A program made the position numbers and the translations under genes. 64,000 nt of DNA from positions 35,032-99,031 of the forward strand of contig JALSGO010000165.1 in assembly GCA_026982655.1 (NCBI GenBank), given 5' to 3'. Source of the stretch: Candidatus Bipolaricaulota bacterium. GTDB lineage: Bacteria > Bipolaricaulota > Bipolaricaulia > RBG-16-55-9. This document shows positions 34,749 to 59,520 of this stretch, one piece after another; within the stretch, counting starts at the first letter, position 1; each line of letters starts with the position of its first letter. A model generated the notes under the pieces. That model ran no database searches. It saw only the letters and a list, made by a program, of their open reading frames with translations, and was not told the origin of the DNA.

Positions 34749-34762
34749 AGAGGTCCTCTTGT

Positions 34763-36729: not shown

Positions 36730-36736
36730 CCCGAAA

Positions 36737-37597: not shown

Positions 37598-37626
37598 GTG
37601 ACCGGTGATATGCGCTTAGAAAGCGC

Positions 37627-37702: not shown

Positions 37703-37709
37703 TCCGCGT

Positions 37710-37782
37710 GAGGGACGTAGCTCAAGGGCAGAGCACCGGCCTGTGGAGCCGGGCGTTGCGGGTTCGAGTCCCGTCGTCCCTC
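37710..37782 (+). tRNA. tRNA-His(GTG)
   Basis: The anticodon loop is CTGTGGA. The extra G at position -1 pairing with discriminator C is characteristic of tRNA-His. Confidence 0.85.
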
Positions 37783-37791
37783 CCCGCGCGT

Positions 37792-37867
37792 GCGCCCGTA
37801 GCTCAATCGGAAGAGCAGCGGCCTTCGGAGCCGCGGGTTGGGGGTTCGAGTCCCTCCGGGCGTACCA
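37792..37867 (+). tRNA. tRNA-Arg(TCG)
   Basis: The anticodon loop is CTTCGGA and the CCA is encoded. The body is near-identical to the Arg(TCT) gene apart from the anticodon and T-arm. Confidence 0.8.
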
Positions 37868-37869
37868 GG

Positions 37870-37951
<82 letters not shown>

Positions 37952-37966
37952 CCCCTCGCTTGCCCC

Positions 37967-37994
37967 TTGACAAGGGACGCCTAAAGCGTATAAT
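37967..37994 (+). promoter_or_regulatory. consensus sigma-70 promoter (TTGACA, 16 nt, TATAAT) for tRNA-Gly(GCC)
   Basis: Perfect -35 and -10 hexamers lie about 16 nt upstream of the tRNA 5' end. Confidence 0.6.
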
Positions 37995-38010
37995 CCTTAG
38001 CGGGAGACGA

Positions 38011-38086
38011 GCGGGCGTAGCTCAGTTGGTAGAGCGTTGGCTTGCCATGCCAAAGGTCGCGGGTTCAAGTCCCGTCGCCCGCTCCA
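38011..38086 (+). tRNA. tRNA-Gly(GCC)
   Basis: The anticodon loop is TTGCCAT and the CCA is encoded. Confidence 0.85.
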
Positions 38087-45081: not shown

Positions 45082-46509
45082 TTAGAAGAGGAAGGCCACG
45101 GCGATCCCGGCCAAGCCGGCGAGCAGGGCCACGATGGCCAACCCTTGAGCGGCGTCCGCACGCGCCTGGGCTTCCTTGATCTGGCGTGCGGCGATCTGGG
45201 CCTGCTCCGCGGTGGCTTCCTCGATCTGGAGACGGATCTCCTCGGAGCTGGGAACACGCGGTAGGGCCGCGAGGACCTCTGCGCGGACCTCTTCCTTGAG
45301 GGTCTCGATGGTGGCCAGCCCTTCTTCTAAGCTCTGTTGGAGACCCTGCATGGCCTGTCGGTTGCTCTCCAGCTCGAGGAGGACCTCGGCGAGCTTGGCC
45401 TCCAGTCGCTCGACGCGCTTCTGGAGTTGTGCCACCTGGGGGGACTCCTGCGGTTCGCGCCGGAGTTGCTCTTGGAGCTGCTCCTGCAGTTGATCCAGGG
45501 CGGCACGGAGGGCTTGGATCTGGGAGGCGTTCTCCTCCGATCGCTTGCCCATCTCGGTGATCTGACGTGCGTTTACCTGGATCTGGGAGTTGAGCTGCTG
45601 GAGCTGCTCGGCCAGGCTCTGAATGCGGGGATGGATCTCCCGCATCTGCTGCATGGCGTCTTGGATCTGCGCCGTTCGGGCTTGCAAACCCTCGATACGG
45701 GCGTCGATCTCCGCGATCTTCGCCTGCAGCTGGGCGGTGGTGTTGGCCAGGCTCTCGACCTGGTCGAGTTGGTCCCGCACGGCCCCGATTTGCGCCTCGA
45801 GGTCCTCCAGGCGCGCGGAGAGCGAGCCGATCTGGGAATCGAGCCGGGCCGACAGCCCCTCCAGGCCCGTCTGCAGACCGCGGGTGTTGCTCTCCAGCTG
45901 TGAAGAGAGCCCCTCCAGGCCCGTCTGCAGACCGGCGAGGAAGCCGCGCAGCTGCTCGCGCTCGGACCGGGCCACATCCAGCTGACCAAAGATCGTTCCC
46001 AAGTTCTCCTGGAACGTCTGGACGACGATGAGCGCGTTCTCCACCGACTCTTGGAGCTTGGCGATGCTGAGCTCGTTGGTCTGGATGCGGTTGGAGAGGG
46101 CCTCCACATCGGCGTCGAGGCGCTCGTTCAGCGCCCGGACCGAGCTCTTGAGGGCCTGGACCCTCTCCGGGAGTTCGCGGAGCACGGCGACTTCGTCCGC
46201 CAGCTGCGCGACCGTTCCGGAGAGCTTCTTGATCTCGAAGGTGTTGTCCTTGGCCACCCGCTCGGCGGCGAAGAGTCGAGGACGGAAGTTCTCCAAGTCG
46301 GAGACGACGTCCTCCGACACCCGCTGCACCTGCAGGGTGAGCGACTTGACCAAGGACTCCAAACCGTCTACCGTGGCCTCCAGCTGCGCCAACTGCTCCT
46401 TCAGGGCCGCCGTCTCGTCCGCGTAGGCAGAGCTGATGAGGGTAAAGCCCAAGAGAGTGACAAGCAGCGAGGCCAAAGCCGTCCGCTTGTACGCTTTGCG
46501 TATGCGCAT
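45082..46509 (-). CDS. membrane-anchored long coiled-coil protein with internal repeats
   Basis: An N-terminal signal/TM segment and a C-terminal TM (LAIVALLAGLAGIAVAFLF) flank heptad-rich repeats such as LQTGLEGLSSQLESN. A 26-nt direct DNA repeat lies inside. Confidence 0.65.
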   Translation of the reverse strand: MRIRKAYKRTALASLLVTLLGFTLISSAYADETAALKEQLAQLEATVDGLESLVKSLTLQVQRVSEDVVSDLENFRPRLFAAERVAKDNTFEIKKLSGTVAQLADEVAVLRELPERVQALKSSVRALNERLDADVEALSNRIQTNELSIAKLQESVENALIVVQTFQENLGTIFGQLDVARSEREQLRGFLAGLQTGLEGLSSQLESNTRGLQTGLEGLSARLDSQIGSLSARLEDLEAQIGAVRDQLDQVESLANTTAQLQAKIAEIDARIEGLQARTAQIQDAMQQMREIHPRIQSLAEQLQQLNSQIQVNARQITEMGKRSEENASQIQALRAALDQLQEQLQEQLRREPQESPQVAQLQKRVERLEAKLAEVLLELESNRQAMQGLQQSLEEGLATIETLKEEVRAEVLAALPRVPSSEEIRLQIEEATAEQAQIAARQIKEAQARADAAQGLAIVALLAGLAGIAVAFLF

Positions 46510-46762: not shown

Positions 46763-46795
46763 AGGAGTCCGTTAATATTTCTTAACGGACTCCTC
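46763..46795. repeat. perfect 14-bp inverted repeat overlapping the CoA-transferase stop codon
   Basis: GAGGAGTCCGTTAA-tattt-cTTAACGGACTCCTC. No U-tract follows on either strand. Confidence 0.4.
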
Positions 46796-48004
46796 GACTC
46801 GAAGGACCCCCCGCTCCCGAAGCGCCTCGATCCGGGCATCGTCGTAGCCCAGCTCTTGTAAGATCTCTCGGGTGTGCTCCCCCAAACCCGGCGGATGGCG
46901 ACGCAACCGGGGCGGCGTCCTCTCCAGCTTTAGGGGGGAGCCAAGGATGGAGAGCTCCCCGATCGTCGGGTGCTCCACCGTGCCCATCATCCCCCGGGCC
47001 CGAAGCGGGGGGAGACCCCAGATGGCGGCCAAATCGTTCACCGGCGTGGCCGGGACGTCATGCTCGTTCAAGATCTCGAGCCATTCCTCAAGGGGCTTCC
47101 GGCGGAAGACCTCCACAAGCAGGCGCTCCAGTTCCTCACGGTGCTTCACGCGGGCTGCGTTGTCCACAAAGCGCGGGTCATCCGTCCACTCCGGGTGCCC
47201 CAGCGCCCGACAGAAGCGCTCCCAGATCGCCGGGCTCCCGACAGCGACCACGAGATGCTTCTCGTCTTGAGCCGGGAAGGCTTGATAGGGCACGATCGTC
47301 GGGTGGCGGGAGCCGAGGCGCCGCGGGGGCTCCCCCGTGGCCCAGTAGTACTGGGCCATGTAGGTGAGGGAAGCCACGCCGCAGTCGAGCATGGCCAGGT
47401 CGATCCGCTGTCCGCGGCCCGTGCGCTCCCGCGCCCAGAGGGCCGCCAGCACGGCCTGGACGGCGTAGTGAGCCGTAAAGAGGTCGACGATGGCGACCCC
47501 GATGCGCACCGGCTCTCCCCCCTCCTCGCCCGTGATGCTCATCCAGCCCGATTCCGCTTGTAAGGCAATGTCGTACGCGGGCCGCTCCGCCCAGGGGCTT
47601 TGACGTCCGTAGCCCGTGATCGAGCACCAGATCAGCCTTGGGTTCCTCGGAGTCAAAGCCTCGTAGTCCAGCCCCAGTCGCTCGAGGGCGCCCGGTCGAA
47701 AGTTCTCGATGACGACGTCGCTGCGCTCGGCGAGCTTTCGAAAGATCTCTTGGCCTTCCGGGGCCTTTAGGTTCAAGGCTACGCTGCGCTTGTTGCGGTT
47801 GACGCTCAGATAATACGCGCTTTCGCCCTTCACGAACGGCGGACCCCAAGCCCGGGTCTGATCGCCCCCGTCGGGGTGCTCCAGCTTGATAACATCGGCC
47901 CCCAGGTCGCCGAGCATCATGGCCGCGTATGGCCCCGCCAGCACCCGCGAGGCGTCCAACACCCGCACACCCGCCAGCGGTGGTTCTTGCCGTCGATCAG
48001 CCAT
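46772..48004 (-). CDS. family III CoA-transferase (CaiB/BaiF)
   Basis: The N-terminal motif LAGVRVLDASRVLAGPYAAMMLGDLGADVIKLE is typical, and the full-length interlocked-dimer fold is present. Confidence 0.8.
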   Translation of the reverse strand: MADRRQEPPLAGVRVLDASRVLAGPYAAMMLGDLGADVIKLEHPDGGDQTRAWGPPFVKGESAYYLSVNRNKRSVALNLKAPEGQEIFRKLAERSDVVIENFRPGALERLGLDYEALTPRNPRLIWCSITGYGRQSPWAERPAYDIALQAESGWMSITGEEGGEPVRIGVAIVDLFTAHYAVQAVLAALWARERTGRGQRIDLAMLDCGVASLTYMAQYYWATGEPPRRLGSRHPTIVPYQAFPAQDEKHLVVAVGSPAIWERFCRALGHPEWTDDPRFVDNAARVKHREELERLLVEVFRRKPLEEWLEILNEHDVPATPVNDLAAIWGLPPLRARGMMGTVEHPTIGELSILGSPLKLERTPPRLRRHPPGLGEHTREILQELGYDDARIEALRERGVLRVEESVKKY

Positions 48005-48434
48005 CGGCCGTCGCCTCGCTCTCGCTTTCGGCCTCCAAGAGGACGGCGATCGCTTCCACCTCGACGAGCATGGCCGGGTCGACGAGCGCCCGGACCCCGA
48101 CCATGGTTAGAGCGGGACGGACGTCCCCGAAGGCCTCCGCGTGCGCCCGACCGTACTCCTCCCAGCGCGAGATGTCCGTGACGTACATCCGCGTGCACAC
48201 CACATCTTGGAGGGAGGCCCCGGCCTGCTCCAGCGCCCGTTGCACTTTCTGCAAAGCGTAGCGCGTCTGGGCGTAGGCGTCGTCCCCGCCCACCACGCGG
48301 CCCTGCTCATCCGTAGCCGTCGTCCCCGCCACGAACACCCAAGGCCCTACGCGCACCGCCCGGGAATAACCCACCACGGGCTCCCACGGCGTCCCCGACG
48401 AGATCTTTAGGCGCCTCTCGGTCATCGCGCCCAC
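47997..48434 (-). CDS. RidA/YjgF family enamine/imine deaminase
   Basis: A chorismate-mutase-like trimer fold is present. The start may be at the second ATG. Confidence 0.75.
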   Translation of the reverse strand: MGAMTERRLKISSGTPWEPVVGYSRAVRVGPWVFVAGTTATDEQGRVVGGDDAYAQTRYALQKVQRALEQAGASLQDVVCTRMYVTDISRWEEYGRAHAEAFGDVRPALTMVGVRALVDPAMLVEVEAIAVLLEAESESEATADG

Positions 48435-49891
48435 TCCTCTCGATGCGGATCGTGAAGGCCCACCGGGCGCTTTCGGTACTCGCCCTGGGGCTCCCCCACG
48501 ACGTCCCCCTCCCGCATCACCACGCGGCCCCGCAGCACGGTGTGCGTCGGCCAGCCCCGCAGGCGCATCCCCTCAAAGGGCGTAAAGTCCTGAGAGGAGC
48601 GGAGGACCTCGGGGGTCACGATCTGTTCCCGCTCCAGGTCGACGAGGGTAAGGTCGGCGTCGCTCCCGACGGCGAGCGTCCCCTTACGCGGATAGAGCCC
48701 GAACGCGCGGGCCGGATTGGCGCTCACCAGCTCCGCAATCCGTGTGAGGGAGAGGCCTCTCTGCCGCCCTTCGGAGAGCAGATACGGGTAGAGGAGGGCC
48801 GTCCCGCCGAAGCCGGGGAGCGCTTTCCAGAGGTCTTCTCCCTTCTGTTCCTCGAAGCAGCAGGCGTGGTCGCTGACGATCGTATCGACGTCGCCGCGCA
48901 GGACCGCCTCCCAAAGGGCTTGGCGGTCTTCCTCGGAGCGGATCGGCGGGTTTACCTTGCCCCGCAGCCCGCCCGCGGCCGTCTCGTAGGTGAGCGCCAG
49001 GTGGTGCACCGTCGTCTCCAGGCGGATGTCGAGGTGGGGGTAATCTCGCTTGGCCTCCGCCGCTGCTTCGACGGCCTCGCGGCTGCTTAAGTGGAGCAAA
49101 TTCAAGGGACAACGGGTGACGTCTCCCAAGAGCACGGCTTCGGCCATGGAGAGGCGCTCCGTGAGCGGCGGGCGCGCTCGATGATAGCCCTCCAGAGTGT
49201 GGAGCCCTAGGCGCTTGACCTCGTCGATGAAGACCCGGATGAGCTCCGCGTGCTCGCAGTGGAGGCTGAGCGAGACCCGCCCGTGGTGCCCGTACGCGCG
49301 GGCCGCTTCGGCCACCCGCTGCATGAGCAAGTACAGGTGCCCTAGATCGTAGTGCTCGGCCAGGGTGTAGTCGCTTCCGCGGGTGGAGTCGGCCGTAAGA
49401 TTTAACCCCTTGTAGAACATGTAGTACTTGAAGGAGCCGACGCCCTGCTCGCGGACGAGCCAGTCTACCTCCCCAAGCTGCTCGGACGTCATGATCGCGA
49501 TGTGGTAGCCGTAGTCGGTGTACGCGTGCCCTCGAGTGATGCGCAGCACCTCGGGGAAGATGTCGCGATAGGGACCGCTCTTGTTGAGATAATGATGCCC
49601 CGTGCGGAAGTAGCTGATCACGGTGGTGACCCCGCCCACGAGCGCCGAGGCCGTCTCGCTCAGAGCATCTTCGGCCAATGATCGGTAAATCCCCAGGTGG
49701 AAATGGGAGTCCACAGCTCCGGGGAGGACGACCTTTCCGCGGGCGTCGAGCACCTCTTCGGCTTGGGAGGAGTCGATCCGTTCGTCCAGGGCGACGACCC
49801 TCCCGTTGCGGATCCCGATGTCGCAGCGGAGCGGCCCTACGTACGGGAGAATCACTGTCCCCCCTAACACCGCCAAATCGTAGCGTCTCAC
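48422..49891 (-). CDS. cyclic amidohydrolase (hydantoinase/dihydropyrimidinase/allantoinase superfamily)
   Basis: The HxH metal motif (PGAVDSHFH) and amidohydrolase barrel are present. The start is trimmed to the GTG at 49891, which has a GAGGAGGG SD. The upstream 180 codons are Arg/Gly/Pro junk. Confidence 0.75.
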   Translation of the reverse strand: MRRYDLAVLGGTVILPYVGPLRCDIGIRNGRVVALDERIDSSQAEEVLDARGKVVLPGAVDSHFHLGIYRSLAEDALSETASALVGGVTTVISYFRTGHHYLNKSGPYRDIFPEVLRITRGHAYTDYGYHIAIMTSEQLGEVDWLVREQGVGSFKYYMFYKGLNLTADSTRGSDYTLAEHYDLGHLYLLMQRVAEAARAYGHHGRVSLSLHCEHAELIRVFIDEVKRLGLHTLEGYHRARPPLTERLSMAEAVLLGDVTRCPLNLLHLSSREAVEAAAEAKRDYPHLDIRLETTVHHLALTYETAAGGLRGKVNPPIRSEEDRQALWEAVLRGDVDTIVSDHACCFEEQKGEDLWKALPGFGGTALLYPYLLSEGRQRGLSLTRIAELVSANPARAFGLYPRKGTLAVGSDADLTLVDLEREQIVTPEVLRSSQDFTPFEGMRLRGWPTHTVLRGRVVMREGDVVGEPQGEYRKRPVGLHDPHREEWAR

Positions 49892-49926
49892 GCTGAGTTT
49901 CCCTCCTCGTTTGGATCTTACGTGCG

Positions 49927-50451
49927 TTACGTCCGCAGGCGTTCCCCGCGGCGCAGCAGCTCCAAGAGCCCTCCGGCCTTCATGAGCTGCCGGACGAAGG
50001 GCGGGAGCGGCTCGGCCTGCAACTCTTCCCCCGTCGTGAGGTTGCGAACGCGGCCGATGAGGGGCTCGACCTCCAGCTCGTCGCCGTCCCGGACGGCCTT
50101 TGTGATCCCGGTACAGACCAGCACGGGATAGCCCAGGTTGATCGCGTTGCGGAAGAAGAGCCGCGAGAAGGACTCCGCCAAGACGCAGGCCACGCCCAGC
50201 TCCTTGAGCACCCGCGCGGCCGGACGGCTTGATCCGCATCCGAAATTTACGCCCGCGACGACCAGGTCTCCCGGCTTCACGTGCTCGGCGAACTCCGGTC
50301 GGATCGCTCGGAAGACGAAGCGCTTGATCTCCTCCTCGGGGACCTTCCCGTACATCGTCTCGCTCGGCAGGATGAGGTCCGTGTTGATGTGGTCCCCGAA
50401 GACCCACGCCCGCCCGCGATACCGCCACGCCGTCTCGCTCTCCTCGCTCAT
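49927..50451 (-). CDS. aconitase-family dehydratase small subunit (LeuD-like)
   Basis: It matches the LeuD swivel domain (...GDNIDTD-like HINTDLI). Confidence 0.8.
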   Translation of the reverse strand: MSEESETAWRYRGRAWVFGDHINTDLILPSETMYGKVPEEEIKRFVFRAIRPEFAEHVKPGDLVVAGVNFGCGSSRPAARVLKELGVACVLAESFSRLFFRNAINLGYPVLVCTGITKAVRDGDELEVEPLIGRVRNLTTGEELQAEPLPPFVRQLMKAGGLLELLRRGERLRT

Positions 50452-50485
50452 CGAGTCCCCTCCTCTCCCCCTATTTTCGTTGGCG

Positions 50486-51763
50486 TCACAGAAGGTACTT
50501 CCTCGGGTCGGCGATGTACCCTTCCAGGGCCGAGGCGGCCACGGTGGCCGCTGAGGCCAAATAGATCTGGGCCTTGGGGCTCCCCATTCGCCCTCGGTAG
50601 TTGCGGTTCTGCGAGGCGATGCAGACCTCGCCGTCCCCCAACAACCCTAAGTGGAACCCCGGACAGGCCCCGCAGTCGGCGTGGGTGATCACGGCCCCCG
50701 CCTCCGCCAGCACCTGCAAAATCCCCTGCTTGAGGGCTTCTTCGTACACGGATTGCGAGGCGGGAGTTACCAACAACCGCGTGTCGGGATGGATCCGTCG
50801 TCCCCTCAGGATGCGGGCCGCCACCTCCAGGTCTTCCAAGCGGGCGTTCGTGCACGACCCCAAGAAGGCCTGGTCGATCTTCACGTTCTCGGTCTCCAGG
50901 GCGCTTACGGGCTGTACGTTGCCCACGTCGTGAGGACAGGCGACCATCGGTTCCAGCCGGGAGACGTCCATCTCGATCACCCGCTCATAGTGGGCGTCGG
51001 GGTCGGGCCCTATGGGCTCCAAGGTCTCCCGCTCCCCCTCGGGAACCCGGGCGCGTACGTACTCCAGCACGACCTCGTCCGGCGGCTGGAGGGCGAACTT
51101 CGCCCCCAACTCAACGCCCATATTGGAGAGCACGATGCGGCTCTCCAAGCTCATCTCGCGAAGGGCCGGACCGTCCCACTCCAGGGACTTATAGAGCGCG
51201 ACGTCCTCCCCATACGTCCCCGCGATATACAGGACGACGTCCTTGGAGGAGACTCCCGGAGGGAGTTCTCCCTCCAGGAGGATTCGGAGAGATTCCGGGA
51301 CGCGGAACCACGTCTCCCCGTAGGCGAGTACGTAGGGGGTCTCCACGTTGATCCCGCAGGCGGCAGCCCCCAGCGCCCCGGCGGTGCAGGTGTGCGAGTC
51401 CGCGCCGACGACGAGCTCGCCAGGCCGGGCAAACCCCTCCTCCAAAAAGACCTGGTGGCAGATGCCGCGGCCCACCTCGTAGACGTAGCGCAGGCCCAGC
51501 TCTTTGACGAGCTTTCGGGCCTCAGCGAAGGCGTTGGCCGCGCTCACCGTGGGGGGTGGGGCCACGTGGTCGAAGACGACCACCACCCGCTCCGGGTCCC
51601 AAACGCGCCCTCCGGCCTGCTGGGCGAACGTTGCGAACCGCCAGCCCGTCATCAGCAGGCGATCCACCCGGGCGATCACCAAGTCGCCGGGGCGCACCCG
51701 CTCCCGGCCCGAGGCCCGTGCCAGGATCTTCTCGGCCATCGTCATGCCTGGGTGCGTGCTCAT
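50486..51763 (-). CDS. aconitase-family dehydratase large subunit (LeuC-like)
   Basis: The Fe-S ligand region (CTNARLEDL / ADCGACPG) is present, with LeuC/HacA-type similarity throughout. Confidence 0.8.
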   Translation of the reverse strand: MSTHPGMTMAEKILARASGRERVRPGDLVIARVDRLLMTGWRFATFAQQAGGRVWDPERVVVVFDHVAPPPTVSAANAFAEARKLVKELGLRYVYEVGRGICHQVFLEEGFARPGELVVGADSHTCTAGALGAAACGINVETPYVLAYGETWFRVPESLRILLEGELPPGVSSKDVVLYIAGTYGEDVALYKSLEWDGPALREMSLESRIVLSNMGVELGAKFALQPPDEVVLEYVRARVPEGERETLEPIGPDPDAHYERVIEMDVSRLEPMVACPHDVGNVQPVSALETENVKIDQAFLGSCTNARLEDLEVAARILRGRRIHPDTRLLVTPASQSVYEEALKQGILQVLAEAGAVITHADCGACPGFHLGLLGDGEVCIASQNRNYRGRMGSPKAQIYLASAATVAASALEGYIADPRKYLL

Positions 51764-52722
51764 TGGCCCCTCCTCGCTCCCTCTCTCTCGGGGGAGTCTT
51801 CATCTCGTCCGACTTGCATCTGTTGCCGAGCCTGCCGACGGAAGCCCTCCTCCCGCTCTTGCAGCTCGGGAAGCTCCGTGATCTCATCGCGGTCGTGGAA
51901 CGTAATCAGCTCTTCCAGGAGGTCCAGGGAGGTGCCCCGCTCCAGGAGGTGGCGGTAGACGCGGGCCATCGTCTTGGCCGCGGCCCGCAGCGCCGTGTTC
52001 GCATGCACCACCACCCGATAGCCGAAGCGCTCGAATTCCCTCAGCGGGAGGAACGGCGTCTTGCCGCCCTCCGGGAGGTTGACGAGAAGGGGCGCAGGGA
52101 TCTCTCGGGGGATACGGGCCAGCTCCTCCCAACTGCGTGGGGCTTCGATGAACACGAGATCCGCTCCCGCTTCCGCAAAGGCCCGTCCGCGCCGCAGGGC
52201 TTCCTCCAGGCCGTGGGTGGCCCGCGCGTCCGTACGGGCGATGATCAGGACGTTCTCGTCCTCGCGGGCGTCGAGAGCCGCATAGAGCTTGGCCAGCATC
52301 TCCTCCAAGGGGATGACGCGCTTCCCCTCGAAGTGGCCGCAGCGTTTGGGGAAGACCTGGTCCTCCAGCTGGATCGCAGACGCTCCGGCCCGCTCGAACG
52401 CTCGCACGGTCCGCACGACGTTCAGGGGACCGCCGTAGCCGGTGTCCGCGTCGGCTATGACGGGCACCTGGACCACATCGACGATTTGGGCCAAGCGCTC
52501 CCGCATCTCGTTGAACGCTAGGAGCCCGATGTCCGGTACCCCCATGCTGGAGGCGACCCCGGAGCCCGAGAGGTAGACGGCCTCGGCCCCGGCCCGCTCG
52601 GCTAAGCGGGCGCTCAGCCCGTCGTAGACGCCCGGCACGAGCAGAATCTTCCCGTCTTGCACGCGCGCCCGCAACCGGGCGTTCCGCTCCCGTTGTCGAA
52701 GGGGATGGATCATCTCGCTCAC
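51760..52722 (-). CDS. isocitrate-lyase/PEP-mutase family C-C lyase (methylisocitrate-lyase-like)
   Basis: PrpB-like motifs (GVYDGLSARL, IADADTGYG, KRCGH) and a C-terminal acidic tail are present. Confidence 0.75.
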   Translation of the reverse strand: MSEMIHPLRQRERNARLRARVQDGKILLVPGVYDGLSARLAERAGAEAVYLSGSGVASSMGVPDIGLLAFNEMRERLAQIVDVVQVPVIADADTGYGGPLNVVRTVRAFERAGASAIQLEDQVFPKRCGHFEGKRVIPLEEMLAKLYAALDAREDENVLIIARTDARATHGLEEALRRGRAFAEAGADLVFIEAPRSWEELARIPREIPAPLLVNLPEGGKTPFLPLREFERFGYRVVVHANTALRAAAKTMARVYRHLLERGTSLDLLEELITFHDRDEITELPELQEREEGFRRQARQQMQVGRDEDSPEREGARRGQ

Positions 52723-53432
52723 CCTCCTACGTAGGCGCGCTTGACCCGCTCGTCCTCTCGAAGGGTCTCGATCGGCCCTTCGAGGACGATCCGTCCGTTC
52801 TCCAGTACGTATCCCCGCTCGGCGACGGCAAACGCCACGTGGACGTTCTGCTCCACGAGTAGAACGCTTATCCCCTGCCGGTGGAGCTGCCCGATGGCCT
52901 CGGTGACCTCGTCCACGAGATAGGGAGCCAAGCCCATGGTCGGCTCGTCGAAGAGGAGCAGCTTGGGCCGGGACATGAGCGCTCGTCCGATGGCGAGCAT
53001 CTGCTGTTCGCCGCCGCTTAGGTTCCCCGCCCGCTGGTGCCGCCGCTCCCGCAATCGAGGGAAGAGCGCGTAGACCCGCTCGATGTCCGCTGCGATCTCC
53101 GGATCGTCTCGTGTGAAGGCTCCCATCTCGAGGTTCTCGAGCACCGTCATCTCGGGGAAGAGCTGCCGCCCCTCGGGGCAGTGGGCGATCCCCAAGCGCA
53201 CGATGGCCGCCGGGGAGAGGCGCGCAAGGTCCCCTCCCCCAAACCGGATGCGACCCGAGCGCGGGCGCAGCAGCCCCGAGATTGCCCGTAGCGTCGTCGT
53301 CTTGCCCGCGCCGTTGGCCCCCAACAGCGCGATCAGCTCCCCCGGCCCGACGCGCAGGGAGATCCCCTGCAGCGCGGGAACCCGACCGTAGCAGACCGAA
53401 ACGTCCTCGAGCAGGAGCTCACATCCGCTCAT
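52719..53432 (-). CDS. livF: branched-chain-type ABC transporter ATPase
   Basis: Walker A (GANGAGKTT), signature (LSGGEQQ) and Walker B motifs are present. Confidence 0.85.
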   Translation of the reverse strand: MSGCELLLEDVSVCYGRVPALQGISLRVGPGELIALLGANGAGKTTTLRAISGLLRPRSGRIRFGGGDLARLSPAAIVRLGIAHCPEGRQLFPEMTVLENLEMGAFTRDDPEIAADIERVYALFPRLRERRHQRAGNLSGGEQQMLAIGRALMSRPKLLLFDEPTMGLAPYLVDEVTEAIGQLHRQGISVLLVEQNVHVAFAVAERGYVLENGRIVLEGPIETLREDERVKRAYVGG

Positions 53433-55317
53433 GGGTGGACTCCCTCCGTCCTTCCGCCTCTCGCTCCCGCCGTCGCTGCCGGGAGCGGCCCAAGTAGACC
53501 TCGATGACCCGGGGATCGTCCTTCACCTCGTCGGGTCGGCCCTCGACGAGCTTCTCGCCGTGGTGGAGCACCACCAAGCGATCGCAGTGGCGAACTAGGG
53601 TTTCCATATGGTGATCCACCAGGAGCACGGTGATTCCCAGCTCCCGAAGGCGGTGGAGGAGCGTCATGCACCGCTCGGCCTCCGCCGGACTCATGCCCGC
53701 GAAGGGCTCATCCAGCAGGAGCAGCTTCGGTTTCGCCCCTAGAGCGATCGCGATCTCCAGCACGCGCTGCTCTCCGTAGGGCAGGTCGGCCGCAGCCTTG
53801 TGACGGGAGCCCTGAAGCCCGGATAGACACAGGATGGCCTCTGTGCGCCCCTCGACATTCGCAGGGTGCAGATGGCATCCGATCCGCACGTTCTGTTCGA
53901 CGGTGAGCCGGGGGAACACTTTGGTGTTCTGGAAGGTGCGCACGATTCCCAAGCGGGCGCGCTCGTGGGGTGCCCGGCGGGTGATCTCCTGCCCCTGGAA
54001 GAGGACCCGGCCTGATGTAGGCCGCAAGAACCCTGTAATGATGTTGAAGAGGGTCGTCTTGCCCGCGCCGTTCGGGCCCACAAGGCCGACGATCTCCCCC
54101 GGGCGAACGTCGAAGCTAACCTCCGCCACGGCCCGGAAGCCCCCAAAGTCCTTTACGACTTGCTCCACCCGCAACAGGGCCGTCCCCTTCTCCGCCGGTG
54201 GATCCTGCGAGGAAGAGGACAAAAGAGCGTTCAGGTTGGGATCGGAACGGGAGGGGGTTAGCTCCGGTGTCGCTTCCCCCGGAGGAGCGTTCGGGACACC
54301 TGCCGGGCTCCTCTCGGGAGTGAGGAGCCCGGAGGCGACGGCGGGAGCAAGGCGGGTTCGCAAACGCCGGAGTCCCCCCACAAGGCCCTGCGGCAGGAAG
54401 GCGATCGTTAGGATGAGGAGCACGCCGAAAAGGATTTCCGAAAAGGCGGGGTGCACCTGCCGGGTCAGCTCGTTGAGGAGAGTGAGGAACGCGGGCCCTA
54501 AAATCGGCCCTAAGGTGGAACCCGCGCCTCCCACCAAGTTCATCACGAAGAGGTCAAACGACTCGCGAAAGGTGAAGCTCTCCGGGCTGATAAACGTCAC
54601 ATAGTGGGCGAACAACGAGCCCGTCATCCCCGCGATCCCCGCGCTCAGGGCGAACACCGCGACCTTGTAGCGATGGGTGGGGATTCCCACAGCTTGCGCA
54701 AGGTCCTCGTCCTCGCGGATGGCGATAAGGGCTTCTCCGAAGCGGGAGCGCACGAGCCGCTCCTTGGTCCACAGCACGAGGAGGGCGAGCGCCAGGACCA
54801 GATAGTAATACCCCAGCTTGTCGCGGAAGGGGTTGAACGTGTAGGCAAGCACCCCCGGGATCTCCACCGAGGCGAAGGGAATGCCGGGGATCCCGTGGGG
54901 ACCGCGGGTAAGGCCGCTCAGCACGTTCATCAAGATGGTGATCACGATCCCCGCGATGAAGGTGACGACCACGAAGTAGTGGCCGCGCAGCCGGAGGGCC
55001 GGGTACCCCAGCGCGAGGCCACACGCCCACGCGACCCCGCCCGCCAAGAGCAGCGCTCCTAGGAACGGAAAACCGGCTTTGACGAGCAGCGCGGAGGTAT
55101 AGGCCCCGATCCCCCAGAATCCCGCGTGCGCGAGAGAAAGCAGCCCCGTATACCCGATGAGAAGGTCCAAGCTGGCCACCAAGGCGACGTTCATGGCGAT
55201 GAGCACCAGCAAGTGGCGCTCCAGGGTCGTGGGGAAGATGTGGGGAAGGGCGAGCGCTCCTAAGAGACTCGCTCCTATGAGCACGATGCGCAGGCCCTTT
55301 GCGCTCCAGCGCCTCAC
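53419..55317 (-). CDS. fused ABC permease-ATPase (LivM-LivG)
   Basis: An N-terminal LivM-type permease with about 8 TM helices is followed by a Pro/Ser-rich linker of about 70 aa and a LivG-type ATPase (GPNGAGKTT, YGEQR). The start is trimmed to the GTG at 55317 (GTGA overlap with livH, GGAGGGGG SD). Confidence 0.75.
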   Translation of the reverse strand: MRRWSAKGLRIVLIGASLLGALALPHIFPTTLERHLLVLIAMNVALVASLDLLIGYTGLLSLAHAGFWGIGAYTSALLVKAGFPFLGALLLAGGVAWACGLALGYPALRLRGHYFVVVTFIAGIVITILMNVLSGLTRGPHGIPGIPFASVEIPGVLAYTFNPFRDKLGYYYLVLALALLVLWTKERLVRSRFGEALIAIREDEDLAQAVGIPTHRYKVAVFALSAGIAGMTGSLFAHYVTFISPESFTFRESFDLFVMNLVGGAGSTLGPILGPAFLTLLNELTRQVHPAFSEILFGVLLILTIAFLPQGLVGGLRRLRTRLAPAVASGLLTPERSPAGVPNAPPGEATPELTPSRSDPNLNALLSSSSQDPPAEKGTALLRVEQVVKDFGGFRAVAEVSFDVRPGEIVGLVGPNGAGKTTLFNIITGFLRPTSGRVLFQGQEITRRAPHERARLGIVRTFQNTKVFPRLTVEQNVRIGCHLHPANVEGRTEAILCLSGLQGSRHKAAADLPYGEQRVLEIAIALGAKPKLLLLDEPFAGMSPAEAERCMTLLHRLRELGITVLLVDHHMETLVRHCDRLVVLHHGEKLVEGRPDEVKDDPRVIEVYLGRSRQRRREREAEGRRESTHERM

Positions 55318-56192
55318 GCGGTTCGCCCCCCTCCGCCGAAGAGCCCCTGCGGGCGCACCAGCAGAATTGCGATCATGAGTCCGAAGGCAACGAGGTCGCT
55401 GTACTGGGCCGCGGTGAAGGCAGCCACCAGCGTCTCCGTAAGGCCGATGATGAGCGCGCCTACAAGGGCCCCCTTGATGCTGCCCATGCCGCCGAAGATC
55501 ACGATGGCGAACGACTTCAGGATGATGATCCCTCCGATGGTCGGGTTGAACGCCCGCGTCGGGGAGACCAGCGCGCCCGCGATCCCCGCAAGGGCTGCCG
55601 CCAAGGTGAAGGTGAGGAGGGCGACCTTGTGCATCTCCACCCCGACCAGCGCGGCGGCGTCGCGGTTTTGAGACATGGCCCGCAGGGCCTTCCCCATCTT
55701 CGTACGCTGAAGGAAGAGCCACACAGCCCCCAAGAGCAGCCCGGTCATCCCGATCGTAAAGACTTGATGGTAGGTGAGGACCGCACCCCCGAGGGCGAGC
55801 TTGGCGTGACCGAACGGCGAGGGGAGCAGCCGAAAATCGGCTCCGAACCTGAAGATCGCCGCATTCTCCAGGATGAGCAAGATCCCCAAGGCCGCGATGA
55901 ACGTCGTCGCCCCGCCTACCCGATGGAGCGGCCGGTAGACCAACAGATAGTTGAGCACCCCGATCGCGGCCATGCCCAGTCCTGCCAGTCCCAGGGAGAG
56001 GAAATAGGGCAATCCTAGAAGCTGAGAGGCGTAGAACGCAACGTAGGCTCCCAGCATGTAGAGGGCTCCCTGGGCAAAGTCGGCAATGTCCATCACCCCG
56101 AAGATCAGGGTGAGTCCCAGGGCTACGAGGGCGTAGACGCTGCTGTTGAACAGCCCCAGCAGTACGGCTTGCACGAGGATGTCAAGGTCCAT
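55314..56192 (-). CDS. livH: branched-chain-type ABC transporter permease
   Basis: A LivH-like permease with 8 TM helices is present. The start is trimmed to the ATG at 56192. Confidence 0.8.
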   Translation of the reverse strand: MDLDILVQAVLLGLFNSSVYALVALGLTLIFGVMDIADFAQGALYMLGAYVAFYASQLLGLPYFLSLGLAGLGMAAIGVLNYLLVYRPLHRVGGATTFIAALGILLILENAAIFRFGADFRLLPSPFGHAKLALGGAVLTYHQVFTIGMTGLLLGAVWLFLQRTKMGKALRAMSQNRDAAALVGVEMHKVALLTFTLAAALAGIAGALVSPTRAFNPTIGGIIILKSFAIVIFGGMGSIKGALVGALIIGLTETLVAAFTAAQYSDLVAFGLMIAILLVRPQGLFGGGGRTA

Positions 56193-56338
56193 GATCTCAA
56201 CCGTCCACTGTACTCCCGACGGCTCTTTTGCCCAACCCGGCTCTTGACAGATGTATGATGTCTGTGATACGATCACAAGCATAAACGATGACCGCCTCCC
56301 CCGCAAGAGGCAACTCAAGGAAAAAGGAGGTCTTCGGT

Positions 56339-57625
56339 ATGGCATCCAAGGAGAGGGGATCCTCCCAGGGAGGGATGAGTCGCCGGGGGTTCCTCAAGCT
56401 CGCAGGCGTCGGGCTGGTCGGGGTAAGCCTGGGGACGGGATGGAGCCGCACGGGATGGTCCCAACTGCCGGATACGATTCGTATCGGGGCGATGTTTCCG
56501 CTCAACCTTGCCGAGGGGGCCCAGGCCCAAGAGGGGGCGGAGCTGGCCGTCCGGCTCATCAACGAGGCCGGTGGCATAGCCGGGCAGACACAGATCGAGC
56601 TGGTGACCGTGGACGACAAGTGCAGCGGCTCGGAGGCCACCAAGGTGGCCAACGACCTCATTTCGCAGGGCGTGCAGTTCGTGATCGGGAACTTCTGCAG
56701 CGGGGCGGCGCTGGCCACGCAGCCGATCCTCGCCGCCGCCGGCATCCCCCAGATCCTCTGGGCGTTCGCCACGGACCTTACCGGAGCGTCCCGGGAGGAA
56801 AACAACGCCATCCTCTCCGTGCGGTTGGGCCCGCAGGCCAAGATCGAGATGGCCCCTCTGGCCAAGTACGCTGTCGTCGCAAACGGCCACAAGCGCTTCT
56901 TCGCCTTCGCGCAGGACACGGGCTTCGGCCGCTCTATGGTCGAGGCGTTCCGCCAGACGTTGGAGGGCTTGGGCGGCGAGTTCGTCGAGGAGCCGCAGTT
57001 CTTTCCCATCTTCCAGCTGGGGGCCATCGGGCCGCTGATCACCGCGGCCAAGGCCTCGGGCGCCGAGGCCGTCCTCGGCATCGGGCTTGCCCCCGAGGAG
57101 ATCGAGATGGTGACCCAATTCAACACCCAGGGGCTGCGCGAGGCAGGCATGACGTTCTACGGGACGGACTTGCTGAACGACACCGCCTTCCAAGAGGCCG
57201 TCCCCGACTCGGAGAAGGACGGGATCTACTTCCCCTGGGTCTACGACAACGGGGACTCCCCTCGGACCTTCGATCGAGCGGAGCCGGAGCCCGGCGCGCG
57301 GAGGATGGACGAGGCCTTCCGCACGCACTTCGGAAGGCCCGCCGTGCGCAACAACGGCTGGGGCTGGGGGAGCATCGAGCTGATCCGTCAGTCCATCGAG
57401 CAACTCGGGAGCGCGGTCCCCACAGCCGTCGCGGAATACTGGCTCCAAGGGGCAACCGAGGCGACCACGGGACCCACCTTTGAACTTCCCTTCGGGAACT
57501 ACGGATTCCTGATCTGTGGGCAGGCCAACATGCGCACCGGGGTAGGGACGTATCGTGAGGGGGTGCGCACCCTGGTAGCCGATCGAGACTTCGGGAACGA
57601 CGTGGTGATCGACCTGTGTTCCTAG
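56339..57625 (+). CDS. livK: ABC transporter periplasmic substrate-binding protein (Leu/Ile/Val-binding family) with Tat-like signal
   Basis: A perfect AAAAAGGAGG SD and an SRRGFLKLAGVG twin-arginine signal are present, with a type I periplasmic-binding-protein fold. Confidence 0.8.
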   Translation: MASKERGSSQGGMSRRGFLKLAGVGLVGVSLGTGWSRTGWSQLPDTIRIGAMFPLNLAEGAQAQEGAELAVRLINEAGGIAGQTQIELVTVDDKCSGSEATKVANDLISQGVQFVIGNFCSGAALATQPILAAAGIPQILWAFATDLTGASREENNAILSVRLGPQAKIEMAPLAKYAVVANGHKRFFAFAQDTGFGRSMVEAFRQTLEGLGGEFVEEPQFFPIFQLGAIGPLITAAKASGAEAVLGIGLAPEEIEMVTQFNTQGLREAGMTFYGTDLLNDTAFQEAVPDSEKDGIYFPWVYDNGDSPRTFDRAEPEPGARRMDEAFRTHFGRPAVRNNGWGWGSIELIRQSIEQLGSAVPTAVAEYWLQGATEATTGPTFELPFGNYGFLICGQANMRTGVGTYREGVRTLVADRDFGNDVVIDLCS

Positions 57626-57725
57626 CCCTGTCAAGGAGCGGGATTTCCTCTCTTTGCCCATCCCTTGATCGCCCGTTGAGAGGCGGATAGACGCACCTGG
57701 ACAGGGAGGCCTAGGGCCTACGGGG

Positions 57726-57769
57726 AACAAGAGGGGAGAAGTCTCCTTCTCCCCTCTTGTTCTTTGCTT
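57726..57769 (+). terminator. intrinsic terminator after livK
   Basis: AACAAGAGGGGAGAAG-tct-CCTTCTCCCCTCTTGTT is followed by CTTTGCTT. Confidence 0.65.
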
Positions 57770-57812
57770 CCTCCGGCCGGGTGGACGGAGCCCTCTTCCC
57801 TCGGCTTCCGAC

Positions 57813-57844
57813 ATTTTGTCGGTCTTTCGAAGATCTGTGATAAT
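57813..57844 (+). promoter_or_regulatory. putative promoter for the GntR gene with extended -10 (TTGTCG, 17 nt, TGTGATAAT)
   Basis: The hexamers lie about 30 nt upstream of the ATG at 57876. Confidence 0.35.
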
Positions 57845-57875
57845 AGTCTTACCAGAGCGAGGAGAGACGATCGGC

Positions 57876-58619
57876 ATGCGCGAGGAACGAACACCCTTCC
57901 GGCAGTTCACGGGCAAGAGCAAGAGAGACTACGTGATCGAGCAGATCCAAGGAGCCATTCTCGGGGGCATCTACCGCCCCGGAGATCGGCTCCCCTCGGA
58001 GGGGGAACTGGCCCGCCAGTTGGGGGTGAGCCGGACCACGATTCGGGAGGCCTTGAGCGCTCTGGAGCTCCTGGGGATTGTGGAGATCCTCCACGGCGAA
58101 GGGACCTACGTGCGCAAGGCGGTCCGTCTGCCCAAGGAGGAACCGGAGTTCTTGGAGCATCTCGAGGAGGGGAGTGGGTTTCGGGACGCACTGGAGGTGC
58201 GCAAGGCCCTGGATGAGCTGACGGCCTGCCTGGCGGTGGAGCGGGCCACCGACGAGGAACTCGATCACCTCCGTCGACTCGTGCGTCAGATGGAGGAAGC
58301 CGTCGCCCGGCGGGAGTACGAACGCTATCTCGATGCCAACATGAGGTTTCACCTGCTCTTGGCGGAGGCGGCCCGCAATGCGATCCTGGTGCGGCTGACG
58401 CACTACATGGTGCGGGTGATGGAGCTCCTCCAAGAGAAGAGGCTGGAGTACTATCTGCAGGATCCGTCCCGTGCTCAGGAGACCCTCGGGGCACATCAGC
58501 GTCTCCTGGCCGCCTTGGAGGCGAGGGACCGGGACGCGACGCGGGAAGCGATGCGCGCACACTACGACGTCGTCCTGGAGAAGCTCCGCTCCCTCGAGAG
58601 CGAGGGGGACGGAGATTAG
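57876..58619 (+). CDS. GntR-family transcriptional regulator (FadR/FCD subfamily)
   Basis: An N-terminal wHTH (LPSEGELARQLGVSRTTIREAL) and a C-terminal all-helical FCD domain are present. The start is trimmed to the ATG at 57876, which has a GAGGAG SD. Confidence 0.8.
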   Translation: MREERTPFRQFTGKSKRDYVIEQIQGAILGGIYRPGDRLPSEGELARQLGVSRTTIREALSALELLGIVEILHGEGTYVRKAVRLPKEEPEFLEHLEEGSGFRDALEVRKALDELTACLAVERATDEELDHLRRLVRQMEEAVARREYERYLDANMRFHLLLAEAARNAILVRLTHYMVRVMELLQEKRLEYYLQDPSRAQETLGAHQRLLAALEARDRDATREAMRAHYDVVLEKLRSLESEGDGD

Positions 58620-58620: not shown

Positions 58621-59520
58621 TTAGATCTCGATCCGGTCCTCCACCGGGTTCTCGAGCCGCCCGTGCTCGTGGAAGTAGATCATCGTCGTCTGGATGGAGC
58701 GGTGCCGCGCCGCCGTCTGCGCTTCTAAGAGGGAGGCTCCGCCCTCGATGGCCAGCGTGACGAAGCTGTGCCGGAGGGAGTGGGGCGAGGTCCGGTCCGT
58801 CTTGACCCCGGCCCGCTTCATGTAGTGCGTCACCCGTCTGCGGATGTGGCGGGTGCTCAGACGCCCCTCTTCCGTGTGGGTGCCCACTTTGGTGAACAGG
58901 GGTGCCTCCGGCGGTACCTCCCCCCGACGGCTCAGGTACTCCAGCAGGGCGCGCTCGGTGGGCTCGGCCAGCACCACGAACTCGTCACGCTCATCTCGTC
59001 CCTTGCCCCAGATGTGCAGGATCTTGCGGCCCTGACGGGTGTCCAGGTCTCCCACGTTCGCCCGGTGGATCTCGATAATCCGCAGTCCGTTGCGCACCAT
59101 CAGGGTGATCATCGCATAATCCCGCAACCCCAGCTCCGTGCTCCGGTCGATCACCTCGAAGAGCCGGCGCAGCTCCGTGCGGGTGAGATCCCGCTTCAGG
59201 TGCCCCCGGGGTCGGCGCAGGCCCTTGATCCCCTCCACGGGGTTGCGCTCCGCCAGCCCCTCGGCCACGGCGAACTGGAAGAAGCGTCGGAGCGCGACCC
59301 AGTAGGTGAGCACGGTGTTGGCTGCCCGATGCGTCCGCAGCCACTCGCGGTAGGCCTTGAGCGTCTCCGGGGTGAGCGGGGGCGGCGGGGAGCCCTGCTC
59401 CCGCCACCAGCGGGTGAAGGTCTTGAGCGCCTCCCGGTACGTGCGGGCCGTGCTGGGGGAGACGTCGATCTGCTGCAGGAACCTCTCACAGGCCTCCGGC
59501 CACGACACCCACGACACCAT
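58621..59520 (-). CDS. tyrosine site-specific recombinase (XerC/XerD-like integrase)
   Basis: The catalytic R...HxxR...Y region is present (LRHSFVTLAIEGG...IQTTMIYFH). The start is trimmed to the ATG at 59520, which has a GGGGGAGGAGAGG SD. Confidence 0.8.
   Translation of the reverse strand: MVSWVSWPEACERFLQQIDVSPSTARTYREALKTFTRWWREQGSPPPPLTPETLKAYREWLRTHRAANTVLTYWVALRRFFQFAVAEGLAERNPVEGIKGLRRPRGHLKRDLTRTELRRLFEVIDRSTELGLRDYAMITLMVRNGLRIIEIHRANVGDLDTRQGRKILHIWGKGRDERDEFVVLAEPTERALLEYLSRRGEVPPEAPLFTKVGTHTEEGRLSTRHIRRRVTHYMKRAGVKTDRTSPHSLRHSFVTLAIEGGASLLEAQTAARHRSIQTTMIYFHEHGRLENPVEDRIEI

Follow-up and report, generated by a model that had tools for sequence, protein, structure and literature searches.

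We analyzed a 64,000-nucleotide stretch of DNA from a Candidatus Bipolaricaulota bacterium (contig JALSGO010000165.1, positions 35,032 to 99,031; hereafter the window) and found it to carry an intact block of 11 genes, nine on the minus strand and two on the plus strand, at 46772-58619. The block encodes a cyclic amidohydrolase (Amh), a two-subunit LeuCD-like hydro-lyase, a C-C lyase of the PEP-mutase/isocitrate-lyase (ICL) family, a Rid-family protein, and a family III CoA-transferase, together with a Liv-type ABC importer and a GntR regulator. Our preferred reading, to which we assign a probability of about 0.4, is that these genes form a substrate-inducible catabolic operon that breaks down a small cyclic amide bearing a carboxylate, the likeliest substrate being a cyclic imide of a substituted maleate or succinate. 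An earlier reading made from the letters of this DNA alone (the sequence-only reading) had described the locus as a substrate-specific catabolic operon that includes a Liv-type importer of its own and a FadR-type (FCD) GntR regulator, and this description is supported.

Conservation of the block and catalytic motifs of its enzymes

The gene block was confirmed by listing the open reading frames (ORFs), by scanning with Pfam and NCBIfam, and from the gene calls of an identical public contig (L001). A genome-context search for the same block recovered the identical 11-gene order in three further metagenome contigs (L087, L089, and L091). Proteins of L089 and L091 are close to those of the window block (78-93% identity), and those of L087 are more distant (67-84%). 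L089 also shares the flanks of the window, consisting of SecA, a coiled-coil protein, and a tyrosine recombinase; the flanks in L087 are entirely different, and the recombinase is absent. Because the same gene order is found in all three contigs, with other flanks in L087, the 11-gene arrangement is more than chance, and the block behaves as a cohesive unit. No enzyme of the block reaches a curated NCBIfam equivalog cut-off.

Amh belongs to the binuclear-metal group of dihydropyrimidinases (DHPases), hydantoinases, allantoinases, and dihydroorotases (DHOases). It falls below every NCBIfam cut-off, scores roughly equally against the DHPase, allantoinase, DHOase, and ErtD models (192-248 bits), and has the D-hydantoinase 1NFG as its best solved relative (198 bits). 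All ligands of the binuclear center are kept, as are the carbamylatable Lys and, five residues on, the catalytic Tyr of DHPases and hydantoinases, and residues H63/H65, K155, Y160, H211, H267, and D341 are invariant in 72 Amh family members. Two Arg residues, R70 and R96, are specific to the family and equally invariant among the 72 members. R70 aligns with the substituent-pocket residue Leu65 of the Bacillus D-hydantoinase, and R96 falls in gate loop 2 (residue numbering as reported by Cheon et al., 2002). The placement of these two residues suggests that the ring of the Amh substrate carries an anionic substituent (carboxylate).

The biosynthetic dihydroorotase PyrC was rejected as an identity for Amh, which scored 235 against a pyrC_multi cut-off of 279 and missed all DHOase equivalogs. 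DHOases bind the substrate carboxylate through an Arg two residues after the HxH motif and through the His of DHAPH; Amh has HFHLG and DHACC where DHOases have HxHxR and DHAPH. The missed cut-offs and replaced residues agree with the sequence-only reading, which an identity as a pyrimidine-biosynthetic DHOase would have refuted. Canonical DHPase/D-hydantoinase was likewise not matched (TIGR02033, 234.8 against 393.25), and Amh has LPGFGG for IPNGAPG, leaving it without the ureide-binding Asn of the PNG motif, as well as an insertion of about 25 residues. At 57-77% identity, the Amh family extends across at least eight phyla, its groups including Armatimonadota, Rokubacteria/Methylomirabilota, Acidobacteriota, Chloroflexota, Actinomycetota, Dormibacterota, Bacillota, and others.

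The C-C lyase contains the motifs DADTG88, EDQ117, and KRCGH123, as in true ICL-family lyases, and a petal-death-protein-like EGGK215. Among solved structures it is closest to the petal death protein 1ZLP (228 bits), with which it has the EGGKTP motif and the catalytic loop in common and which reportedly prefers 2-ethyl-3-methylmalate (Lu et al., 2005). Canonical methylisocitrate lyase (PrpB) was rejected, with a score of 301.8 against the TIGR02317 cut-off of 354.4, and the window lyase has NLPEGGKTP at the position of NITEFGATP in PrpB, so that the TEFG motif is replaced. Where PrpB has the Arg of its SAFRA motif (Arg241), the window lyase keeps an aligned Arg, and the second PrpB Arg position (Arg270) is occupied by His.

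The LeuC-like and LeuD-like proteins pass only subfamily models. The expected motifs for the three cysteine ligands of the 4Fe-4S cluster (GSCTN302 and CGAC364 in the LeuC-like subunit) are present, together with the Pfam domains Aconitase (E = 6e-89) and Aconitase_C (E = 7e-12), identifying the enzyme as an Fe-S hydro-lyase of the aconitase superfamily. Candidates tried and rejected were the LeuC equivalog (427.9 against 610.65 for the archaeal-type TIGR02083), the LeuD equivalog (143.8 against 245.85 for TIGR02084), and homoaconitase HacAB (HacA, 412 against 550; HacB, 143 against 229), the last also having no counterpart here of the Arg at the YLRT position. The specificity loop of the LeuD-like subunit reads PSETMYGKVP, as opposed to the canonical P[AG]RY-L-V-[YM] type represented by PARYLVYT in MJ1277 and PGRYNLT in P. 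horikoshii LeuD; loops of the P[AG]RY type are found both in isopropylmalate isomerases and in homoaconitase. Outside its close relatives, this aberrant loop recurs only in L090, a Chloroflexota lyase-LeuC-LeuD triad found through the similarity of its LeuC (P0135; 55% identity to that of the window). The window LeuC clade is rare, with about six relatives above 60% identity before a drop to 56%. The genes are ordered lyase-LeuC-LeuD, and the LeuC-like start codon overlaps the lyase stop codon by 4 nt. The 64-kb window was found to encode no further homologue of LeuC or LeuD, and none of the genes lying outside the block but within about 10 kb of it has a Pfam family of the leucine pathway. 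The failed equivalogs and the aberrant loop uphold the sequence-only view that this is not leucine biosynthesis. Among solved structures, the isopropylmalate/citramalate isomerase of M. jannaschii is the closest relative (large subunit, 400 bits; small subunit, 169 bits).

Canonical RidA (TIGR00004, 59.3 against 106.25) and RutC (64 against 169) were both rejected for the Rid-family protein, whose best solved relative is 3I7T (129 bits), which is M. tuberculosis Rv2704. PAL104 of this protein aligns with PAR of PH0854, leaving no equivalent of Arg105. Since this defining residue is absent, an enamine-deaminase step is unsupported, and the earlier annotation as a RidA/enamine deaminase is not safe. 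The Amh and Rid genes overlap by 4 nt. The CoA-transferase is matched best by the succinate-glutarate CoA-transferase model (408 against a cut-off of 750, so that the equivalog was missed) and, among solved structures, by succinate-hydroxymethylglutarate (HMG) CoA-transferase 9BR7 (352 bits); it also resembles formyl-CoA/oxalate transferases (288-320 bits). The SAFRA-aligned Arg of the lyase and the closeness of the CoA-transferase to the succinate-glutarate/HMG type would fit a dicarboxylate leaving group.

Genomic partners of Amh and the lyase

We surveyed 82 Amh loci by clustering the neighbors, labeling the clusters by Pfam and NCBIfam, and applying a GC3-based gene caller; the counts are approximate lower bounds, gene calling being imperfect in high-GC DNA (antisense shadow ORFs). 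Neighbors of Amh included a family III CoA-transferase (at least 39 loci), an MmgE/PrpD-family protein (30), an HpcH/CitE-type CoA-ester lyase (18-24), a cyclase-family protein (15-27), a fumarate-reductase/TcuA-like flavoprotein (17), an SDR (16), and the LeuCD-like pair with a PrpB-like lyase (about 10-14). These neighborhoods form three versions of a "hydratase + lyase" tail, interchangeable with one another, for substituted C4-C6 di- or tricarboxylates: a LeuCD-like enzyme with a PrpB-like lyase; a PrpD-like protein with a CoA-transferase and a CitE-like lyase; and MaoC with a CoA-transferase and HpcH, as in L005. All partner types stand in one cluster in Solirubrobacteraceae. At the other extreme are minimal operons in which Amh, the LeuCD-like pair, and the lyase are the only enzymes and are accompanied by a transporter (Armatimonadota L006, L014, and L025) or by a transporter and a flavoprotein (Sulfobacillus L081). 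Because these operons hold only these enzymes, plus the flavoprotein in L081, the three must suffice.

LeuCD-like genes beside Amh in other lineages encode canonical-type loops and are only 43-47% identical to those of the window; recruitment to the Amh and lyase context has therefore involved two distinct LeuCD lineages. The pairing of a LeuCD-like enzyme with an ICL-family lyase is a recurrent module, and the sequence-only comparison of that pair with the logic of dimethylmaleate hydratase (DmdAB) and dimethylmalate lyase (Dml) holds. In a second survey, centered on the lyase and covering 53 metagenome loci of at least 4 kb, an Amh-type gene was present in 14, a LeuCD-like pair in 8, and a CoA-transferase in 7; the Amh-type genes belonged to three subfamilies at 33-36%, 45%, and >57% identity. 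We also observed a marine metagenome locus (L135:8873-13337) in which the gene for a related lyase is followed by one for an isochorismatase-family amidase, two GST-family genes, one for a CoA-transferase (42% identity to the window enzyme), and a Rid-family gene.

Transporters beside Amh vary by lineage (Liv-type ABC, Dpp-type ABC, MFS, or TonB-dependent receptor), a pattern typical of catabolic modules. When a locus has a second amide hydrolase, this enzyme is of the isochorismatase (NicF family), cyclase, or amidase-signature type, and no carbamoylase (N-carbamoyl amidohydrolase) appeared among the recurrent neighbor clusters annotated in the 82 loci. One Solirubrobacteraceae locus has an isochorismatase gene between the lyase gene and that of an Amh paralogue (L063:1903-2580). 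A cultured representative is plasmid pDND3A of Rhodococcus gordoniae (L172, record 121520-137373). One strand encodes an FAD-binding protein, a dihydroorotase family protein, a CoA transferase, and an MFS transporter; the other encodes IclR, a CoA ester lyase, a cyclase, and MmgE/PrpD, with amidase and hydantoinase A/B genes after them. The hydantoinase A/B (oxoprolinase-type) and amidase genes of this plasmid are under a FadR/GntR regulator. Related clusters are also carried by the cultured organisms Nonomuraea gerenzanensis and Microtetraspora sp. NBRC 16547. The gene content, the intact catalytic motifs, the conservation of the block, and this recurrent genomic coupling are direct observations.

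Proposed pathway and competing explanations

We infer the substrate class and every chemical step of the following scheme from these comparisons. The GntR/FCD repressor would sit on the operator-promoter block between livH and livK and be freed by the substrate or an intermediate, and the exported LivK-like protein with LivH, LivM-LivG, and LivF would bring the compound in. Amh would open the ring, and the nitrogen would be lost as ammonia, either spontaneously or with the help of the Rid-family protein. As such a ring can yield only the cis isomer, the product would be a cis-enedioic acid of the maleate or aconitate type. The Fe-S LeuCD-like hydro-lyase would hydrate it to a substituted malate, which the PrpB/petal-death-protein-like lyase would cut between C2 and C3 to a 2-oxo acid (probably pyruvate) and a carboxylic or dicarboxylic acid, and the SUGCT-like family III CoA-transferase would activate the released acid.

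Hydrolysis of a cyclic imide or amide is the simplest chemistry that joins a DHPase-type ring hydrolase to tails of this kind, and a cis-enedioate fits them because of the obligate substrate geometry of aconitase-type and PrpD-type hydratases. The partner enzymes are all of families that act on succinate-, malate-, or aconitate-core acids. An imide or half-amide is favored over a ureide by the types of accessory amide hydrolase and by the lack of a carbamoylase among the annotated recurrent clusters. D-hydantoinases hydrolyze cyclic imides as an imidase side activity (PMC11424739, PMC13098106).

Several points weigh against this cyclic-imide scheme. The window encodes no dedicated half-amidase. 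Dialkylmaleamic acids reportedly lose their amide spontaneously through catalysis by the neighboring carboxyl group (Kirby and Lancaster, 1972), and spontaneous deamidation could explain the missing amidase; deamidation is nevertheless the weakest step of the scheme. The arguments drawn from R70, R96, and the lyase Arg depend on sequence alignment and residue numbering rather than on a structure. Full-text searches found no description of this gene cluster, and literature searches found no tested activity for any member of this Amh family, for this LeuCD clade, or for this lyase clade. The Rid-family protein lacks the residue needed for known imine hydrolysis, which leaves its role unexplained, and LeuCD-type enzymes could equally isomerize a saturated hydroxy acid. 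In about a quarter of the Amh loci, mainly from Rokubacteria, Amh lies amid housekeeping genes with no pathway partners, so the family may serve a different or a further function, a caveat that holds for the alternatives below as well. The highly conserved Amh of Rokubacteria loci L015-L024, L026, and L028, which occupies a syntenic housekeeping neighborhood of genes for an HIT protein, a trypsin-like protease, M16 peptidases, an FtsJ-like methyltransferase, and an SMC/RecN-like protein, is not accounted for by the pathway model.

Among the alternatives, we consider it unlikely that Amh opens a carboxylated hydantoin or dihydropyrimidine (candidates being dihydroorotate, hydantoin-5-acetate, and hydantoin-5-propionate) to an N-carbamoyl amino-dicarboxylate that is then deaminated and processed. 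Ureides are the classical substrates of the Amh group, whose DHPase, allantoinase, DHOase, and ErtD models Amh resembles at 192-248 bits, and N-carbamoyl-aspartate would suit partner enzymes with a succinate-core logic. However, Amh lacks the carboxylate-binding residues of DHOases and misses all DHOase, DHPase, and allantoinase cut-offs, no N-carbamoyl amidohydrolase was found in the window or among the annotated recurrent neighbor clusters, and aspartate or glutamate would need no tail of LeuCD, lyase, and CoA-transferase.

The sequence-only reading had instead pointed to the tail of nicotinate fermentation. In a pyridine-carboxylate route of this kind, a partly reduced pyridone such as tetrahydro-6-oxonicotinate would be opened as an enamide lactam, ammonia lost from the enamine with the aid of the Rid protein, and the product passed to a DmdAB/Dml-like tail. 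The likeness to the DmdAB/Dml system of Eubacterium barkeri lies in family and gene order: a two-subunit LeuCD-type Fe-S hydro-lyase adjoins a PEP-mutase/ICL-family lyase, the NCBIfam model matching the small subunit is named LeuD/DmdB, and the lyase has the KRCGH loop. The 4-nt overlap of the Amh and Rid genes would also suit such a route, and in E. barkeri enamidase couples ring opening to deamination (PMC9304392). Beyond the hydratase-lyase module, the comparison fails. We found no enamidase, 6-hydroxynicotinate reductase, Mo hydroxylase, or B12 mutase in the block, in L087 and L089, or in the annotated recurrent clusters of the 82 loci, and no ring reductase or hydroxymethylglutarate enzyme in the block or those clusters. 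The window amidohydrolase is of the DHPase/hydantoinase type, enamidase belonging to a different amidohydrolase subfamily, and a CoA-transferase and an ABC importer are added in the window. The Rid protein is without Arg105, and the direct product of ring opening would be an oxo acid rather than a maleate- or malate-type substrate. We therefore regard this route as distinctly unlikely. Nothing specific was found in support of the methylaspartate-type or citramalate-type routes that had been mentioned beside it.

In a third alternative, which we judge very improbable, the LeuCD-like enzyme would dehydrate a beta-hydroxy amino-dicarboxylate released by Amh, the resulting imine would give an oxaloacetate analogue, the lyase would act as an oxaloacetate hydrolase, and the oxalate would be activated with CoA. 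The lyase family and the resemblance of the CoA-transferase to formyl-CoA/oxalate transferases fit this chemistry, and aconitase-type enzymes can dehydrate hydroxy-amino acids, as AcnX does. Its difficulties are the Rid protein, which is without the Arg for imine hydrolysis; the CoA-transferase, which is closer to the succinate-glutarate/HMG transferases; and the PrpD-type and CitE-type alternative tails, which do not fit oxalate chemistry. It is scarcely credible that the LeuCD-like pair is an ordinary isopropylmalate/citramalate isomerase clustered here incidentally: although such an isomerase is its closest solved relative and a second leuCD was looked for within the 64-kb window only, the equivalog cut-offs failed, the aberrant loop occurs beyond close relatives only in the lyase-linked L090 pair, the 4-nt overlap ties the pair to the lyase gene, the same order is kept in L087, L089, L090, and L091, a separate LeuCD lineage was recruited beside Amh and the lyase in other phyla, and leucine-pathway families are lacking on genes within about 10 kb of the block.

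Returning to the cyclic-imide scheme, we considered one natural source of such compounds. Hematinic acid, methyl-ethyl-maleimide, and methyl-vinyl-maleimide are monopyrrole end products of chlorophyll, bilin, and heme oxidation. The idea that the operon and the wider Amh clusters serve bacterial scavenging of tetrapyrrole-derived maleimides is a long shot, and we infer it throughout. With hematinic acid, Amh would open the imide and the dialkylmaleamic acid would shed ammonia spontaneously; the LeuCD-like enzyme would hydrate a methyl-homoaconitate-type acid, the lyase would release pyruvate and glutarate, and the SUGCT-like transferase would form glutaryl-CoA. Turnover of the reduced (succinimide-type) ring D product would fall to the fumarate-reductase-like flavoprotein of the sister clusters. 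Such a role would account for every enzyme, for the missing amidase, and for the preference of the petal death protein for 2-ethyl-3-methylmalate. The literature support that we found for it consists solely of the occurrence in nature of maleimides from tetrapyrroles (PMC7318184, PMC10343206).

Locus organization, regulatory region, and related systems

The features of the locus are collected in Table 1. As the sequence-only reading had stated, the minus-strand operon diverges from livK, and the GntR gene follows livK on the plus strand. The number of minus-strand genes had been given as ten and is nine, LivM and LivG being encoded in a single ORF; the same fusion occurs in the related blocks of L087 (601 aa) and L089 (631 aa). 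Of the eight junctions, five have the overlapping start and stop codons that had been ascribed to this operon (4-14 nt), and at the remaining three the genes are 5, 34, and 35 nt apart. A perfect 14-bp hairpin surrounds the CoA-transferase stop codon and probably marks the end of the transcription unit as a putative terminator; no T-run follows it. The LivK-like protein has a twin-arginine-type signal (SRRGFLK) and is related too distantly to solved binding proteins (at most 57 bits) for them to point to a ligand.

Table 1. Features of the 11-gene block and its associated sequence elements (positions are those of the window)
Feature	Position	Strand	Length	Supporting match or remark
Perfect 14-bp hairpin round CoA-transferase stop codon	46754-46803	-		inverted repeat GAGGAGTCCGTTAA-N6-TTAACGGACTCCTC
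Family III CoA-transferase	46772-48004	-	410 aa	CoA_transf_3, E = 8e-141, profile positions 1-366 (full-length domain)
Rid (YjgF/YER057c/UK114) family protein	47997-48425	-	142 aa	Ribonuc_L-PSP
Cyclic amidohydrolase Amh	48422-49891	-	489 aa	Amidohydro_1
LeuD/DmdB-like aconitase-family small subunit	49927-50451	-	174 aa	LeuD/DmdB subfamily model, 162 bits
LeuC/HacA/DmdA-like aconitase-family large subunit	50486-51763	-	425 aa	PRK00402, 506 bits
PEP-mutase/ICL-family C-C lyase	51760-52713	-	317 aa	PEP_mutase, E = 2e-55
LivF-type ATPase	52719-53432	-	237 aa	ABC_tran
LivM permease-LivG ATPase fusion	53419-55317	-	632 aa, one ORF	BPD_transp_2 + ABC_tran + BCA_ABC_TP_C
LivH-type permease	55314-56192	-	292 aa	BPD_transp_2
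Conserved promoter and candidate operator block	56243-56277			livH-livK divergent intergenic region
LivK-like periplasmic binding protein	56339-57625	+	428 aa	Peripla_BP_6, E = 1.7e-40
GntR/FCD (FadR-type) regulator	57876-58619	+	247 aa	PF00392 (GntR) + PF07729 (FCD) on identical gene in L001

The region between livH and livK contains a promoter-like site for livK (TTGACA-18-TACGAT; 10 of 12 consensus matches) within the conserved block, which also includes ACAGA-N9-TCTGT. Approximately 30 nt across this promoter are invariant between the window, L089 and L091, and the more distant L087. A perfect palindrome, TGTGATacgATCACA, lies over the -10 element at 56263-56277 and occurs once in the window. 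It is not statistically rare, as an equally good match arose in 31 of 100 shuffles, and it is not conserved in L087. The adjacent invariant 30-nt block is a better candidate for the GntR operator than the palindrome. The GntR gene has its own promoter-like site at 57816-57844, and a hairpin lies between livK and the GntR gene at 57733-57752; the two genes may therefore be on separate transcripts. The best NCBIfam matches of the regulator are LldR and PdhR, both below cut-off.

The block had also been called an island, a term for which we found no compositional, tRNA, or direct-repeat support. Its GC content is 0.659 against 0.660 for the rest of the window, no tRNA gene lies at a block border (the nearest is more than 8 kb off, at 38011-38086), and no attachment-site-like direct repeats flank the block, the repeats found being short, imperfect matches. 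An XerC/D-like tyrosine recombinase gene (58621-59520, minus strand) is convergent with the GntR gene and ends 2 nt from the GntR stop codon; its product is below the XerC and XerD equivalog cut-offs, and the gene is kept in L089 and L091 and missing from the L087 copy. A paralogous pair (45082-46509, minus strand, and 59728-60666, plus strand; 25% identity, E = 3e-8) brackets the block and recombinase in inverted orientation. Each paralogue has an N-terminal signal-like segment, a long coiled coil, and a C-terminal hydrophobic anchor, the two share a 31-nt inverted DNA match (46222-46252 and 59928-59958), and neither stands beside the L087 block. Farther off in the window are the hydrogenase-maturation genes hypF, hypC, hypD, and hypE, followed by glycosyltransferase genes (about 11135-16066); a cluster of seven tRNA genes (Pro, Gly, Arg, His, Arg, Leu, and Gly) at 36654-38086; and a further tRNA-Pro on the opposite strand to that cluster at 34671-34748. 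A database look-up of the protein encoded at 33939-36599 gave no record.

Parts of the proposed pathway have counterparts in characterized systems. In the methylcitrate cycle, PrpD or AcnB followed by PrpB hydrates or isomerizes an aconitate-type acid and then cuts it to pyruvate and a dicarboxylate; the window lyase keeps the SAFRA-aligned Arg of PrpB, and related Amh loci have MmgE/PrpD in place of LeuCD. In contrast to that cycle, the window lyase misses the PrpB cut-off, with PEGGK for TEFG and His at the second Arg position, and the block has no methylcitrate synthase and couples the module to an amidohydrolase. The carnation petal death protein, compared together with fungal 2,3-dimethylmalate lyase and oxaloacetate acetylhydrolase, resembles the window lyase in EGGKTP, the catalytic loop, and overall similarity (228 bits), but has Tyr where the window lyase and methylisocitrate lyases have Arg, and the window context is bacterial and operonic.

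Hydrolytic opening of N-heterocycles by HxnM/HxnN during nicotinate use in Aspergillus and by the HpoH cyclase in Rhodococcus likewise proceeds through C-N ring opening and ammonia loss to a dicarboxylate (PMC9304392). In Rhodococcus, a cyclase-family enzyme opens the trihydroxypyridine ring hydrolytically during 2-hydroxypyridine use (PMC9304392), and cyclase-family genes accompany Amh in many loci. HxnM, however, is related to a polysaccharide-deacetylase-like structure and not to the DHPase type of Amh (PMC9304392), and these pathways end at 2-oxoglutarate or 2-hydroxyglutarate with no hydratase and lyase tail. At the family level, the itaconate/methylsuccinate cluster (Ict, Ich, Ccl, and an MmgE/PrpD isomerase; PMC12290011) recalls the CoA-transferase, HpcH-type lyase, and MmgE/PrpD found beside Amh in Chloroflexota and Actinomycetota, whereas the window has no HpcH lyase, PrpD-family protein, or MaoC, and itaconate clusters have no amidohydrolase.

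Every family in the block is thus known, and the combination, the Amh specificity, and the LeuCD loop variant are uncharacterized in the literature that we found. The locus also holds a lesson for annotation, as the labels "3-isopropylmalate dehydratase," "methylisocitrate lyase," "dihydroorotase," and "RidA" are all wrong here. The Amh cluster of pDND3A offers a practical entry point for experiments. Identifying the Amh substrate would assign a function to thousands of "dihydroorotase family protein" annotations and would establish a new specificity among the LeuCD/DmdAB and PrpB/petal-death-protein families. Most phyla that carry Amh are poorly cultured lineages of soil and hot springs, and the adjacency of Amh to C-C lyases is consistent across them; the identity of the substrate might possibly reveal the recycling of a common class of nitrogen-containing ring compounds.

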